From sequence record MT478991.1: a stretch of DNA of 64,000 bases; one strand, given 5' to 3'. Within the stretch, counting starts at the first letter, position 1. Every line of letters starts with the position of its first letter. The notes under the pieces are model-generated. The model saw only the letters and a program-made list of their open reading frames with translations, searched no databases and was not told the DNA's origin. The DNA comes from Escherichia phage vB_EcoM_011D4. The translations under genes and the position numbers were made by a program. Below are positions 43,414 to 47,926 of this stretch, one piece after another.

Positions 43414-44883
43414 CTATTCCCCATTACCATTATACTTTCTTTGCTTAGTTATCCACACTCTAACCATCTCTACAGATTCGCCGTCAGACGGATCAAGAGT
43501 TTTTCCCTTTTTCTTCATGCGGTACTTAAATCCGTTAAATCTTGCATTCTCTTGTTCGTTAAAGTCGAACATCTTTTTAAATGATTTTCGCCCTTTACGC
43601 TCACCACATTCTAGCGGAATCATTCGGTCTGTTATTACATTGGCATTAGGTAGAAACGTTTTTAGATAATCTACCAACGCCCAATCAGGAACATATAGAT
43701 TAACATTCTCCTTGCTCTCGTTGTCTCTCAGGTTACAACGCAAACATAATTGAAATGCTGGTTCCAGATAATCAGACACATGACGCGCTTTCAAAAACTC
43801 ATTTGTTGGAAGATCGCAACTGTGCGCCAATCCTTTTAAAATGTCAATCTCCCATCGTTGAGGGTTAAAGCTGAACATCACAGCAACATTTTTATGATGA
43901 ATGTAAGAGTTAAGGCCATAAGATCCGTATGGTATCCGCTCACCAATACCATTTGTGCACGCTTCACGGTCCCTATTCACGGTATAAATGAAGTCATCAC
44001 CACATTCATTTTTAACCATATCAACTAGACGTTCAAAGGTATTGTTTGTTTCTGACTGGTGACGCGACCAGCGTTCGGAGTCCGTCATAAGGATGATATT
44101 AACTCTATCTGTATTTTTATACTCTTTGAAATATAGTCTGGATTCTAGAGCACTCGGAACAAAATCGCAATTTGCATAGTATCGTAGATACTTCCCGCTA
44201 TATGTATCAAAGAGATTTGCACATGCTATCGTAACCTTTTTAAAGTCTCCCCATGTACCGTGTTTGTTATCGTTCAAGAAAACAATTTTCGACCCATTCT
44301 TCCGGTGTCCTTCGTTATGTTTTACCATAACGTTGATTTTCTTCTCTAATAACGCCTCATAAAGCCCTCTAAGAGAAGAATCGATCATATCAGTACCATC
44401 CTTTGCACTTTCTATCTTTTCTTTGATAGCGGCCTTCTCAGAGTCTTTTAGAACTAGGTTCTGTAGACATTCCGATTCGTCGGCGATTGGTTCGCAATGC
44501 TTCGTGATAAGTTCAAGATTAGACTTAAACGGATACTCATTAAATTCAACCAGTTGAGGAACTTCATCAATGTAAAGAGCATAATCACCAAACATTTTTG
44601 AACGTTCCATATTAGATAACGCAGTATGTGTAATGAATATCACATCAGCACCGTCTTTAACTGATTGCATTATCGACGCTTGCACTGTCTTAAGGCTTCT
44701 TAGTCTTGTGCTATCGATCAAGACAGCACGACCGCCCATTCTTTTAAACTTATTGTAAGATTGTTCACTTAAAACACGAGATGGCGAAGCAATAACCGCT
44801 TTTTCTTTTGTCTCTAGGACGTGGGAAAGTATAGCATCAGTTTTCCCCGCCGCTGGCAATGCGATTAATGTTTCAATCTTCAT
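43414..44883 (-). CDS. P-loop NTPase of unknown function (489 aa)
   Basis: Walker A at residues 8-15 (ALPAAGKT) and Walker B-like ALYIDEVP near residue 105; large uncharacterised C-terminal region; ATG overlaps the upstream stop. Confidence 0.5.
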   Translation of the reverse strand: MKIETLIALPAAGKTDAILSHVLETKEKAVIASPSRVLSEQSYNKFKRMGGRAVLIDSTRLRSLKTVQASIMQSVKDGADVIFITHTALSNMERSKMFGDYALYIDEVPQLVEFNEYPFKSNLELITKHCEPIADESECLQNLVLKDSEKAAIKEKIESAKDGTDMIDSSLRGLYEALLEKKINVMVKHNEGHRKNGSKIVFLNDNKHGTWGDFKKVTIACANLFDTYSGKYLRYYANCDFVPSALESRLYFKEYKNTDRVNIILMTDSERWSRHQSETNNTFERLVDMVKNECGDDFIYTVNRDREACTNGIGERIPYGSYGLNSYIHHKNVAVMFSFNPQRWEIDILKGLAHSCDLPTNEFLKARHVSDYLEPAFQLCLRCNLRDNESKENVNLYVPDWALVDYLKTFLPNANVITDRMIPLECGERKGRKSFKKMFDFNEQENARFNGFKYRMKKKGKTLDPSDGESVEMVRVWITKQRKYNGNGE

Positions 44884-45170
44884 TAGAAACCCTTACGTCG
44901 TGCTTTCTGGCATTTCTTGATCATTTTATCAGAAATTTCGCGCTTAGGTGCAATCTCTTTCACACCGAAAGCACTAATGCCAAATTCAGAGAGAATATAT
45001 TCAACTAACAATTCACGCACACGCGCTTTACCGATATTCACGCCGTTATTTTTCAGATATGTCTGGCCTTCGACTTGCATCAGATCTAAATCTGCGTCGG
45101 TAATATTGATTTCTTCCATGCGCCCAAATCGAGAATAAACCATGTGTGCGATTGCATTGTGTACTAACAT
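44883..45170 (-). CDS. Hypothetical protein (about 95 aa)
   Basis: Track start is TTG; first ATG at 45170; stop overlaps the start of the P-loop gene. Confidence 0.4.
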   Translation of the reverse strand: MLVHNAIAHMVYSRFGRMEEINITDADLDLMQVEGQTYLKNNGVNIGKARVRELLVEYILSEFGISAFGVKEIAPKREISDKMIKKCQKARRKGF

Positions 45171-45191
45171 AATATATTCCTCACTCAAGAA

Positions 45192-45350
45192 TTACTTAAT
45201 GATACTTACTTTACCAGATCCGTGACAATGAGCGCAACACCCATCACCACACAATCCTGTTCCGTTACAGTGTTTACACTTCTTCAACGGTAAAGCCATT
45301 ATAACAAATAAAGCAATAATGAACACCGAAACTAAATTCTCAATAATCAT
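45192..45350 (-). CDS. Possible membrane-anchored Cys-rich mini-protein (52 aa) with DnaJ-type zinc-finger repeats
   Basis: MIIENLVSVFIIALFVIMALPLKKCKHCNGTGLCGDGCCAHCHGSGKVSIIK: N-terminal TM helix plus two CxxCxGxG units; ATG overlaps the glutaredoxin-like gene's 3' end; below ORF-track threshold. Confidence 0.35.
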   Translation of the reverse strand: MIIENLVSVFIIALFVIMALPLKKCKHCNGTGLCGDGCCAHCHGSGKVSIIK

Positions 45351-45609
45351 AAATCGCCCTCAGTTCTTTATAGCCTCCAATGTGCTCGTTGTCAATGAAT
45401 ATCTGGGGGTATACAAATCGGAGGCTCTTTGAGTTCAGCCTCCCCGCCAGTTCTTCAATCATATCACGGTCGGGAATAATGTCAACCCCGACCTGCTTGA
45501 ATACTGGTTTAAGTGTATACGGAATACCCAGATCATCCAGTAGCTTCATTGCACCAATACAACCATAACAATGATAAGCCTCTTTCGGTATGCCGTATAT
45601 CTCGATCAT
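45340..45609 (-). CDS. Glutaredoxin-like protein (NrdH/glutaredoxin family)
   Basis: 89 aa; N-terminal CxxC (HCYGC), cis-Pro motif VYPQIF and GGY typical of glutaredoxin/thioredoxin fold; near nrdG/nrdD. Confidence 0.55.
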   Translation of the reverse strand: MIEIYGIPKEAYHCYGCIGAMKLLDDLGIPYTLKPVFKQVGVDIIPDRDMIEELAGRLNSKSLRFVYPQIFIDNEHIGGYKELRAIYDY

Positions 45610-46082
45610 TTCTCAGCCTTTAATCTTTCTAGTTCTTCTTCCAGTTCCTTGATCCGTTGGTCACGTTCAAAGTCACGCTGCAACTTAGTGGCGAATACTC
45701 GTTTAAACTGATTGTAATCATCGATTTTAAACACTTCTTCTTCGCCATAGCGACGCACAGAAACTTCGTAGTTATTGAAGAATTGTTGCATCATTGCTTC
45801 GGATGATAGTTCTGCTGATACTACTTTAAAATATTGATCTTCTGTAGGCGAAAACCAATTACAAGCATAAAGATAAACCTTTTCATTGTCTGGACACTGG
45901 TAAGCCTTACCATCGATTTCAATCACAGAAACATATTCAGGCATAGTAGATGAATCAATAGCTAAGACTTTAAACTGACGGTCCCCGATAAACTCGGAGA
46001 TCACACGATTCGCATCACTGGTTGCAAAGGCTTTACGCGCTTGTTCGCTTTTCCACTGATAGGTCATACCAACAACAAACAT
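45606..46082 (-). CDS. Hypothetical protein; member of multi-copy module family (1 module)
   Basis: N-terminal module VGMTYQWKSEQARKAF...FKVL...VSVIEIDGKAY shared with the next three genes and with 52293..54381. Confidence 0.5.
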   Translation of the reverse strand: MFVVGMTYQWKSEQARKAFATSDANRVISEFIGDRQFKVLAIDSSTMPEYVSVIEIDGKAYQCPDNEKVYLYACNWFSPTEDQYFKVVSAELSSEAMMQQFFNNYEVSVRRYGEEEVFKIDDYNQFKRVFATKLQRDFERDQRIKELEEELERLKAEK

Positions 46083-46083
46083 A

Positions 46084-46908
46084 TTACCAACCTCGCTCTT
46101 TACCGATCAAAAATTCAACCTCACGACGTTTAATGTCTTCTTGAAGGTCTTTAATCTTCTGGCGATCTTGCATGATTTCATCCATCTTGTCAAGTGCTGC
46201 AATAAAATCATCGAAACGTTCAAAGGTTTTACCTTCATTTGCTTCGCCAAATTTAACCATAGTCAGACCGTAACGACTACTAAACAGACGTTTCAACTGC
46301 CCAACGATCTTAGAATCAGTAGTGACGACTTCCAATTCTTCTACTTCTTGAAAGAATTTTCTATCAGAATCAATAAACCAGCTAGTTCCTTTATGGTCTT
46401 TATCTTCGGTTGCACTCATTAGAGTATGGTCTTTACCATCAATTTCAATTACATCAATTTGCCCACATGGACTAACCTTTTTAACAGTAAAAGGTCTATA
46501 ATTTATTGCTCGTGCAATAACATAATTAAGGTTAGATACGTTTTCAGCATAATGACAGAAGTCGGTCATAGCATTCGCATCTTTCCAAGTATAAGTTTTA
46601 CCAACTTCCCATTTCTGGGGAACTTCTTCAACTTCACGAAAGAATTTTCTGTCAGTAGGACTAAAGAAAAATGATGCCGTCCACAATTCATTTTCTGTAA
46701 CAGAGTCTACCGTATGCTCAACCCCATCGAGTTCTATTACATCAATCCAATCGCCATCTTCGACCTTGTTGATGGTAAAAGGCTTATCACCAATAGATTT
46801 TCTGATATCGTCATTAAGTGGAGAAAGGCAACCACCACCACAATTAACAAAATCTGTTTTAGCTTTTTCATCTTTCCAGGTGTAAGTTTTACCAATTTCC
46901 CATTTCAT
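46084..46908 (-). CDS. Hypothetical protein; module family (2 tandem modules)
   Basis: MKWEIGKTYTWKDEKAKTDF and QKWEVGKTYTWKDANAMTDF start two internal repeats, each followed by ...IDVIE(L/I)DG...DRKFF(R/Q)EVEE. Confidence 0.5.
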   Translation of the reverse strand: MKWEIGKTYTWKDEKAKTDFVNCGGGCLSPLNDDIRKSIGDKPFTINKVEDGDWIDVIELDGVEHTVDSVTENELWTASFFFSPTDRKFFREVEEVPQKWEVGKTYTWKDANAMTDFCHYAENVSNLNYVIARAINYRPFTVKKVSPCGQIDVIEIDGKDHTLMSATEDKDHKGTSWFIDSDRKFFQEVEELEVVTTDSKIVGQLKRLFSSRYGLTMVKFGEANEGKTFERFDDFIAALDKMDEIMQDRQKIKDLQEDIKRREVEFLIGKERGW

Positions 46909-46920
46909 AATATATTCCCC

Positions 46921-47400
46921 TTAACCGATTTTATCAAGTTCGTTTAATGCTTTCTCTGCTTCCTGTATAGCTTGCACCCTTTCCGGCATTTTGTCAAGAA
47001 AATCTTTCAACTCTTCAAAACTGGAGATATGACGCAAGGCGTTAGCACCGATAGCCGCATGTGATTTGCATTCAAAGCGGATTTTATAATTATCCATCGC
47101 CAACTTGAGAAGATCAATTAATTTAGATTCTTCTGGAATAATAATTTCTTCAAATCTGCTACGGTCATGATCCAGAAACCAACAAGATAGACCTACATCG
47201 GTTGAACTAATATAAGTTCCATCATGAAGATAAACAGACCGCACGTATCCTTTTTTCGCATCAACCGACGCAACTTTAAACGGTAATCTCAGATATTTCA
47301 AATAATCAACATCATACCATTTAAAAAATTGGTTTGCATCTTTTACATCTTTCCACGCATAGGTCTTACCAGCTTCCCATTTCATAATATCATCTCTCAT
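46921..47400 (-). CDS. Hypothetical protein; module family (1 module)
   Basis: MKWEAGKTYAWKDVKDANQFF...PFKVASVD...; C-terminal coiled coil. Confidence 0.5.
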   Translation of the reverse strand: MRDDIMKWEAGKTYAWKDVKDANQFFKWYDVDYLKYLRLPFKVASVDAKKGYVRSVYLHDGTYISSTDVGLSCWFLDHDRSRFEEIIIPEESKLIDLLKLAMDNYKIRFECKSHAAIGANALRHISSFEELKDFLDKMPERVQAIQEAEKALNELDKIG

Positions 47401-47926
47401 TTTTGATACGTGATTCTAATTGGATCATACGGTCGCGCGTTTGCTTGTATTCTCGGATAGCACCGATCCGGCTAGGCATACCATCAAGCACGCTCTTAAT
47501 ACCTTCTAGGGTAGTAATTTTGGCAATGCTATTATGTAACCCCATCTTATCGATCAACTGAATGTCGTAGGCTTCCATAAGCAGACCCAGGCGTTCTAAA
47601 GTTAGGTCTTCTTCTTTTTCTTCCGAATCTGGAATCTTAGGTTCAATAGTAACTTCGGTAAAGAAACGACGCTCACCCGACCAAAACCACACACCGGAAC
47701 AGCCAATAGGGGATTCTTTTAACGTCATAGAGTCGAAATTACTACCAATAATAGTAATTTCTCTAACATCACCATCATCGTCAAGGTCTTCTACCCTAAA
47801 CGGGCGACCAGCCAACAAGTCAACAATACATCTGTTAATAGACGACGAAAATTTAGTCAGTTCGGCTTTCGACGCTTCGCATTCAATCTTGTAAGTTTTA
47901 CCAACTTCCCATTCCATAATAATCAC
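47390..47926 (-). CDS. Hypothetical protein; module family (1 module)
   Basis: MEWEVGKTYKIECEASKAEL...RPFRVEDL...VREITIIG...ERRFFTEV. Confidence 0.5.
   Translation of the reverse strand: MIIMEWEVGKTYKIECEASKAELTKFSSSINRCIVDLLAGRPFRVEDLDDDGDVREITIIGSNFDSMTLKESPIGCSGVWFWSGERRFFTEVTIEPKIPDSEEKEEDLTLERLGLLMEAYDIQLIDKMGLHNSIAKITTLEGIKSVLDGMPSRIGAIREYKQTRDRMIQLESRIKNER

Follow-up and report, generated by a model that had tools for sequence, protein, structure and literature searches.

We report that the minus-strand open reading frame at 45192-45350 of the window (the whole 64 kb stretch of phage 011D4 DNA analysed here) is a genuine coding gene, and that its 52-residue product joins an N-terminal transmembrane (TM) helix to a Cys-rich part that, from homology and modelling, is a putative single Zn(Cys)4 knuckle, anti-TRAP-like in structure and homologous to half of the DnaJ Cys-rich domain. 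Tentatively, and with somewhat less than even confidence, we propose that this mini-protein is an early, membrane-tethered zinc knuckle in N-out/C-in orientation that may bind a protein of the host or of the phage and so, as an inhibitor or an adaptor, serve host takeover or counter-defence. It was already known as a catalogued hypothetical protein with a known class of motif; what is refined here is its architecture, topology, regulation and evolutionary behaviour, and what is new is a conserved candidate promoter inside the neighbouring glutaredoxin-like (Grx) gene and a divergence island at the mini-protein gene.

The source genome is an RB49-like Krischvirus of the Straboviridae, and its region 44000-47000 shows 96-97% identity to 58 phage records. 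The reading frame consists of 52 codons followed by the TAA at 45192-45194 and translates to MIIENLVSVFIIALFVIMALPLKKCKHCNGTGLCGDGCCAHCHGSGKVSIIK; the ATG at 45350 is the sole start codon after the upstream in-frame stop (the stop-to-stop segment begins GRF-M). Retranslation and hydropathy bore out the position, the translation, the hydrophobic helix and the two CxxCxGxG units given for this ORF in a first-pass annotation, and our translation matches the sequence quoted there. The same annotation described the ORF as unannotated, which is true only under the 60-residue cutoff that it applied, as the protein stands in public records as RB49p046 (NP_891617.1, "hypothetical protein") and as UniProt Q7Y3T0 ("uncharacterized"). 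Orthologs with 92-98% amino acid identity are present in 58 Krischvirus genomes, most of which label the product "hypothetical protein" and some "putative membrane protein", and about 3 of the 58 annotated relatives omit the ORF. No opposite-strand ORF of more than 37 residues competes for this sequence, and a search of 44800-45800 against Rfam returned no RNA family.

The gene order at the locus is nrdG, four goF-like paralogs, the nrdH-like Grx gene, the mini-protein gene, a gp55.2-like gene (DUF7570), a 489-residue DEAD-like gene and gp55. The gp55.2-like gene (44883-45170, minus strand, 95 residues; PF24454, E 1.1e-28; annotated gp55.2 in RB49) is co-oriented with the mini-protein gene and lies 21 nt past its stop codon, and gp55.2 of T4 inhibits topoisomerase I of E. 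coli (PMC4396842). The four tandem paralogs (45606-47926, minus strand; 158, 274, 159 and 178 residues) match phrog_5347, give weak goF-like PHROG matches and have in common an N-terminal W-x-x-GKTY-x-WK module, which is doubled inside the 274-residue protein.

Relatives were gathered by tblastn, an exhaustive HMMER search of 1.8 billion representatives and locus scans; a word-indexed protein search returned close relatives only, and the wider family was reached by the exhaustive HMMER search. The same architecture was found in six diverged Krischvirus-like lineages (P0003, P0011, P0017, P0078, P0102 and isolates) and in Ounavirinae and relatives (among them Felixounavirus, Kolesnikvirus M7 gp087, the Erwinia phages Tian and Pistou, Yersinia P778, Pectobacterium Arno162 and Shigella Silverhawkium). 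Family members are proteins of 49-60 residues whose TM segment starts within the first 8 residues. The 18 that were aligned are 24-83% identical to the mini-protein, keep the N-terminal hydrophobic helix and have eight invariant columns (C25, C28, G30, G32, C39, C42, G44 and G46). Soluble look-alikes that have no TM helix (Buttiauxella GuL6_177, a 102-residue protein in L009 and C-terminal knuckles of large proteins in L021, L028, L029 and L037) were left out of the family. The phrog_3931 model (PHROGs v4), a family of unknown function, is matched by the mini-protein with E 4.6e-9 (its residues 11-48 align with positions 17-56 of a 59-position model), and elsewhere by the Felix homolog (3.4e-33), Erwinia M7 gp087 (3.7e-18) and the Krischvirus-like P0017 (1.9e-9).

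Several observations confirm that the gene is real. The reading frame is kept across two phage lineages, and 20 distinct Felixounavirus alleles give a pS of 0.243 and a pN of 0.023, hence a pN/pS of 0.09. The architecture, the Shine-Dalgarno sequence and the candidate promoter described below are conserved as well, and the pair of motifs is not a chance product, since none of 200 block shuffles of the window produced a CxxCxGxG pair in one frame (mean of 0.2 single motifs per shuffle) and the mini-protein is the only ORF with such a motif in its six frames. Three Felixounavirus records (P0007, P0008 and P0009; phiWec177, NJ12 and a metagenome contig) carry copies that are frameshifted after the first motif or truncated at the N-terminus, so that either these records contain errors of sequencing or annotation or the gene is lost from time to time. 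There is no ortholog in T4, where unrelated genes occupy the equivalent place: the translated T4 genes 55.3-55.6 (from nrdH to 55.2), the membrane protein 55.8, encoded upstream of nrdH, and the 51-residue membrane protein Ac near rIIB all lack the motif.

The first-pass annotation referred to DnaJ-type zinc-finger repeats. Homology to the CXXCXGXG region of DnaJ is upheld at the level of the family, but the number and type of zinc sites are better described as one anti-TRAP-like site. The two units (C25-G32 and C39-G46; codons 25-46, 45213-45278, minus strand) are each of the form C-x2-C-x-G-x-G, and the presence of only two motifs with the spacing C-x2-C-x10-C-x2-C, as in anti-TRAP, points to a single-zinc knuckle and not to the two-zinc DnaJ domain. 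The family profile matched the Cys-rich domain of E. coli DnaJ (PDB 1EXK) with E 4.5e-10 and anti-TRAP (3LCZ) with E 1.4e-5, and retrieved many proteins of DnaJ length (340-380 residues) from the 1.8 billion representatives. PF00684 gave sub-threshold matches in 15 of the 18 family members (best E 5.8e-5, under the gathering score). The mini-protein alone has no match to PF00684 at E<=1 and falls under every Pfam and NCBIfam threshold; for the anti-TRAP models, it scored 10.4 bits against the 65-bit cut-off of NF058604 (E 0.55), and PF15777 was matched by only 5 of the 18 members (best E 0.0075). An AlphaFold2 (AF2) model built on the 18-sequence alignment (mean pLDDT 75.5) places a small beta hairpin after the N-terminal helix, and in Foldseek its top PDB neighbours were the anti-TRAP structures 3LD0, 3LCZ and 2BX9, with an rmsd of 0.6-0.7 Å over 25-27 residues. 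Neither a J domain (HPD motif; no Pfam or NCBIfam match) nor a catalytic domain was found in the mini-protein. Besides the four putative ligands C25, C28, C39 and C42, C38 is semi-conserved (CC or CxC in 12 of 18 members), and codon 34 (45249-45251) encodes a Cys peculiar to the 011D4 allele where RB49 and most relatives have Arg, so that this allele has six cysteines instead of five.

The predicted TM helix (LVSVFIIALFVIMALPL; codons 6-22, 45285-45335, minus strand) is strongly hydrophobic (its residues 6-22 average 2.94 on the Kyte-Doolittle scale), and the AF2 model has a helix at residues 2-19. Its N flank (MIIEN) has no Lys or Arg, while the C flank (KKCKHC) has three. The N flank is likewise free of Lys and Arg in 23 of 24 short family members, usually with an acidic residue, and basic residues follow the helix; some members carry acidic C flanks. 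By the positive-inside rule, an N flank of this kind together with a basic C flank predicts an N-out/C-in topology, which would leave the finger in the cytoplasm, at the surface of the inner membrane. The idea, raised in the first-pass annotation, that the peptide acts on envelope proteins is disfavoured because of this predicted orientation.

The Grx gene (45340-45609, minus strand, 89 residues; PF00462, E 2.2e-4; phrog_22, nrdH in RB49) reads YPQIFI...HIGGY and has the active site C14-Y-G-C17, the CYGC/CWGC motif being conserved. The mini-protein ATG overlaps its last 11 nt (ATGATTATTGA), and a Shine-Dalgarno GAGG (45358-45361, minus strand) lies inside the Grx 3' end, 7 nt upstream of the ATG. 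GAGG or GGAG stands at the same distance in 6 of 6 Krischvirus-like lineages, including L043, in which the Grx C-terminus is different. Every Krischvirus-like contig examined (six lineages) conserves the triad of Grx, mini-protein and DUF7570 genes with an overlap of 8-11 nt, and the overlap persists where Grx identity is down to 59-67% and that of the mini-protein to 46-48%. Because overlap and Shine-Dalgarno sequence are conserved despite this divergence, the coupled translation suggested in the first-pass annotation is plausible, but it may be dispensable, since the gene has its own conserved Shine-Dalgarno sequence and a candidate promoter about 100 nt upstream of its ATG.

This candidate promoter (45458-45486, minus strand) lies inside the Grx gene and reads GTTGACA-16 nt-(TGa)TATGAT, an 11/12 match to the sigma-70 type with an extended -10 element. 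It is identical in RB49, L042 and L045, and the same position holds a perfect TTGACA-17-TATAAT in L043 and TTGACT-16-TACAAT in L044, although the encoded Grx residues differ. The 90 nt around it are 100% conserved among genomes that are otherwise 83-97% identical. The candidate also fits the early -35 consensus of RB49, GTTGAC, in a phage whose novel ORFs cluster in early regions (PMC1524935). Taken as sequence evidence, these features strongly suggest an early promoter within the Grx gene, and a transcript started there would carry the mini-protein and gp55.2-like genes but not that of Grx. Promoters of the sigma-70-like kind are also enriched around the homolog in Felixounavirus EC106 (L002 2599-2626 and 2862-2890, plus strand; 7 found against 2.0 expected), where one such site lies about 100 nt upstream of the homolog within the gene before it, an arrangement like that in Krischvirus.

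The mini-protein gene is also an island of divergence. Between the metagenomic Krischvirus-like contig L042 and 011D4, nucleotide identity is 43-67% exactly from the start to the stop codon of the mini-protein gene, against 87-100% in both flanks, and the encoded proteins are 52% identical for the mini-protein, 94% for Grx, 99% for DUF7570 and 100% for the 489-residue protein; the comparison also reveals 9-nt indels in the TM part of the gene. L045 and L040 show the same pattern in a milder form, and in the Ounavirinae the homolog has 47% identity against 68% for its flanks. Variable positions cluster at the tip of the hairpin (residues 33-37) and at residue 43, and a comparison of alleles gives a pN/pS of 0.43 for the finger and 0.70 for the TM helix. 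However, synonymous divergence is raised too (pS 0.33-0.54 in the mini-protein gene vs 0.09-0.33 in the flanks, or about 0.5-0.6 vs 0.1-0.3), which argues at least as strongly for a swapping of old alleles, or for a looser constraint on so small a gene, as for positive selection. The island therefore fits a mosaic cassette of old alleles under weaker constraint and not simple recent positive selection, in contrast to the strong constraint on the gene within Felixounavirus. No pattern of co-variation was seen between mini-protein alleles and alleles of the 489-residue neighbour or Grx among Krischvirus-like contigs. The DEAD-like 489-residue gene (43414-44883, minus strand; phrog_2467) is itself mosaic among these contigs, being identical in L042 and only 68-70% identical in L045 and L040, regardless of the mini-protein allele. 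The pattern is the signature that a preprint (bioRxiv 10.1101/2023.04.06.535777) describes for phage accessory genes; the preprint makes no mention of the mini-protein.

From these observations we propose how the mini-protein may work. It would be the product of an early-expressed accessory gene, a bitopic inner-membrane micro-protein with an N-tail of 4-5 residues in the periplasm, one TM helix and a C-terminal domain of about 30 residues on the cytoplasmic face, folded as a single Zn(Cys)4 knuckle hairpin through C25, C28, C39 and C42. Early in infection, the tethered module could act on a host (or phage) protein at the cytoplasmic side of the inner membrane, by capturing, inhibiting or relocating it. 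A role in binding is supported by the binding-type fold, by co-transcription with the gp55.2-like gene, with which the mini-protein shares a unit that we count as an early, host-directed context, by the accessory-gene pattern and by the precedent of the plant protein FIP, discussed below. That the hairpin tip varies, and that the gene behaves as a hypervariable allele while its flanks are conserved, suggests a partner under host-phage conflict, although the gene is simply conserved within Felixounavirus, which counts against this reading. We found neither experimental nor co-evolutionary evidence for any partner and nothing that links the mini-protein to FtsH, the anti-defence and defence libraries (including the PADLOC models) gave no match, and literature searches returned no study of the mini-protein or of phage anti-TRAP-like proteins. 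The Gabija anti-defence protein Gad1 was considered and set aside, as its Pfam match (E 0.25; 0.0064 in one family member) is sub-threshold, covers the Cys-rich tail only and was treated as chance. Also to be counted against the binding-module reading are the scores under Pfam and NCBIfam thresholds, the acidic C flanks of some members, which bear on a topology predicted from charge rules, and multi-repeat relatives with signal peptides, which indicate that the fold can be exported.

It could be argued instead that the finger acts as a holdase or assembly factor, binding unfolded or assembling polypeptides at the membrane, for example membrane-associated phage proteins such as rIIA/rIIB. The Ounavirinae-like homologs follow a phrog_4262 gene and stand directly before rIIA in four lineages and one gene away in a fifth, the Cys-rich region of DnaJ to which the finger is homologous is substrate-binding, BSD2 and plant thylakoid factors offer a likeness as zinc-finger proteins that are DnaJ-like yet have no J domain, and some depositors label homologs "chaperone protein" or "heat shock protein". 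Those names are motif-based, however, and in Krischvirus rIIA is about 28 kb away. A single knuckle of 22 residues offers little holdase surface, and one would not expect the gene of a housekeeping assembly factor to diverge more than any other while its flanks stay almost identical. We consider this reading improbable.

Also unlikely is the proposal that the mini-protein serves the NrdH-like Grx as a substrate, as a partner or as an adaptor to the membrane, kept stoichiometric by translational coupling. The finger would then hold a redox-switchable zinc site or exchange thiols and disulfides, in the way reported for the Cys-rich domain of DnaJ and for DnaJ-like zinc-finger proteins of plant thylakoids. 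The overlap with an intact C-[YW]-G-C Grx in all six lineages, with the proteins diverged to about 46-67%, speaks for such a module, as do the semi-conserved extra Cys beside C39 and a weak resemblance to the Cys-rich tail found in eukaryotic proteins with a fused Grx (PF23733, the GRXCR1/2 type). This last match is insignificant (E 0.1; 12.9 bits against a 26-bit cut-off, over 13 residues), and a phmmer search with Grx found no Grx fusion in 163 relatives, so that a Rosetta-stone link was rejected. The suggestion of redox partners in the first-pass annotation rests on a lineage-specific neighbourhood: no Grx lies near the Ounavirinae-like homologs of the same family, and T4 nrdH has no such partner. 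The internal promoter, moreover, would yield transcripts that carry the mini-protein without Grx, and mini-protein alleles swap independently of a near-invariant Grx.

A periplasm-facing peptide that acts on envelope proteins, whose helix would serve as an N-in signal anchor and lead to export of the Cys-rich part, is less probable still. Many small T-even membrane proteins work in the envelope, and the multi-repeat relatives P0143, P0085 and P0129 have classical signal peptides, so that CxxCxGxG modules can be extracytoplasmic. Nevertheless, the flank charges run the other way in 23 of 24 members, with no Lys or Arg before the helix, where acidic residues are usual, and positive charges (KK and K26) after it; neither a signal-peptidase site nor a lipobox is found in the mini-protein sequence, and it is in the cytoplasm, a reducing compartment, that Zn(Cys)4 sites typically occur. 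Finally, a spurious or decaying ORF with no function, to which its very short length, its omission from a few annotations, the broken Felix-like copies and the fairly high pN/pS between Krischvirus-like alleles (0.27-0.72) might be taken to point, is already effectively refuted by conservation, as the frame, the TM helix and the eight Cys/Gly positions are kept in two phage lineages at 25-50% identity, along with the low pN/pS in Felixounavirus, the conserved expression signals and a motif pair beyond chance.

If the binding role that we favour is true, the mini-protein, a TM helix and one zinc knuckle, would be among the smallest structured phage effectors and a tractable model for the way in which micro-proteins are held at the membrane so as to catch proteins of the host. 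The swapping of alleles between near-identical flanks makes it a candidate determinant of host range or counter-defence in Krischvirus and Felixounavirus, both of which are used in phage therapy and biocontrol. A wider and more doubtful reading is that phrog_3931 comprises hypervariable membrane-tethered anti-TRAP-like micro-inhibitors, exchanged as allelic cassettes among virulent enterobacterial myoviruses, in which each hairpin tip would neutralise a variant host factor associated with the inner membrane. Candidate targets would be sensors or effectors of defence that are bound to the membrane or, by analogy with plant FIP, proteases of quality control such as FtsH.

Comparison with known systems places these results in context. 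The members of phrog_3931 share with the mini-protein a TM helix followed by C..C.G.G-x-C..C.G.GK, those of Felixounavirus and Kolesnikvirus having 54-60 residues and lying upstream of rIIA; the Krischvirus branch differs in matching part of the model (E 4.6e-9 vs 3e-33 for Felix) and in its neighbourhood, which is Grx and gp55.2-like genes instead of phrog_4262 and rIIA. With DnaJ/Hsp40 there is homology of the CXXCXGXG motif at the family level, but DnaJ has four motifs and two interleaved zinc centres, together with a J domain, a G/F region and C-terminal domains, whereas the mini-protein has two motifs, one putative zinc site and only its TM anchor beside the knuckle.

Closer in size and fold is anti-TRAP (RtpA; Bacillus; PF15777), which has 53 residues against 52, forms one zinc site from two CxxCxGxG units with the same spacing, and is both the best structural match to the mini-protein and a significant match to the family profile. 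Anti-TRAP acts purely by binding and blocking another protein; it is soluble, forms trimers and dodecamers and targets TRAP, which is not known from enterobacteria, including E. coli. Unlike anti-TRAP, the mini-protein has an N-terminal TM helix and lacks a C-terminal helix in the AF2 model, and its context is that of phage early genes, whereas anti-TRAP is under tryptophan (T-box) control. A bacterial look-alike of 52 residues (P0139; L050 2525-2683 and L051 521-679) has a TM helix, poly-Lys and then the same knuckle; it lies between a Trp-tRNA-synthetase-type gene with a Trp_repressor-family gene on one side and an Asp/Asn-tRNA synthetase gene on the other, a context that recalls the tryptophan-linked setting of anti-TRAP.

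For the predicted layout at the membrane, the nearest parallel is FIP (At5g02160), one of the plant thylakoid DnaJ-like zinc-finger membrane proteins, which has a TM segment and two CxxCxGxG units, with the finger facing the stroma, and which binds FtsH5 (PMC5915565). FIP, which we compared with the mini-protein by description only, is eukaryotic and limited to land plants and is made as a larger precursor with a transit peptide. In mature FIP one anchor helix is followed by a C4 finger without a J domain, which is also the architecture predicted for the mini-protein, and the stromal side of FIP is equivalent to the cytoplasmic side on which the finger of the mini-protein is predicted to lie.
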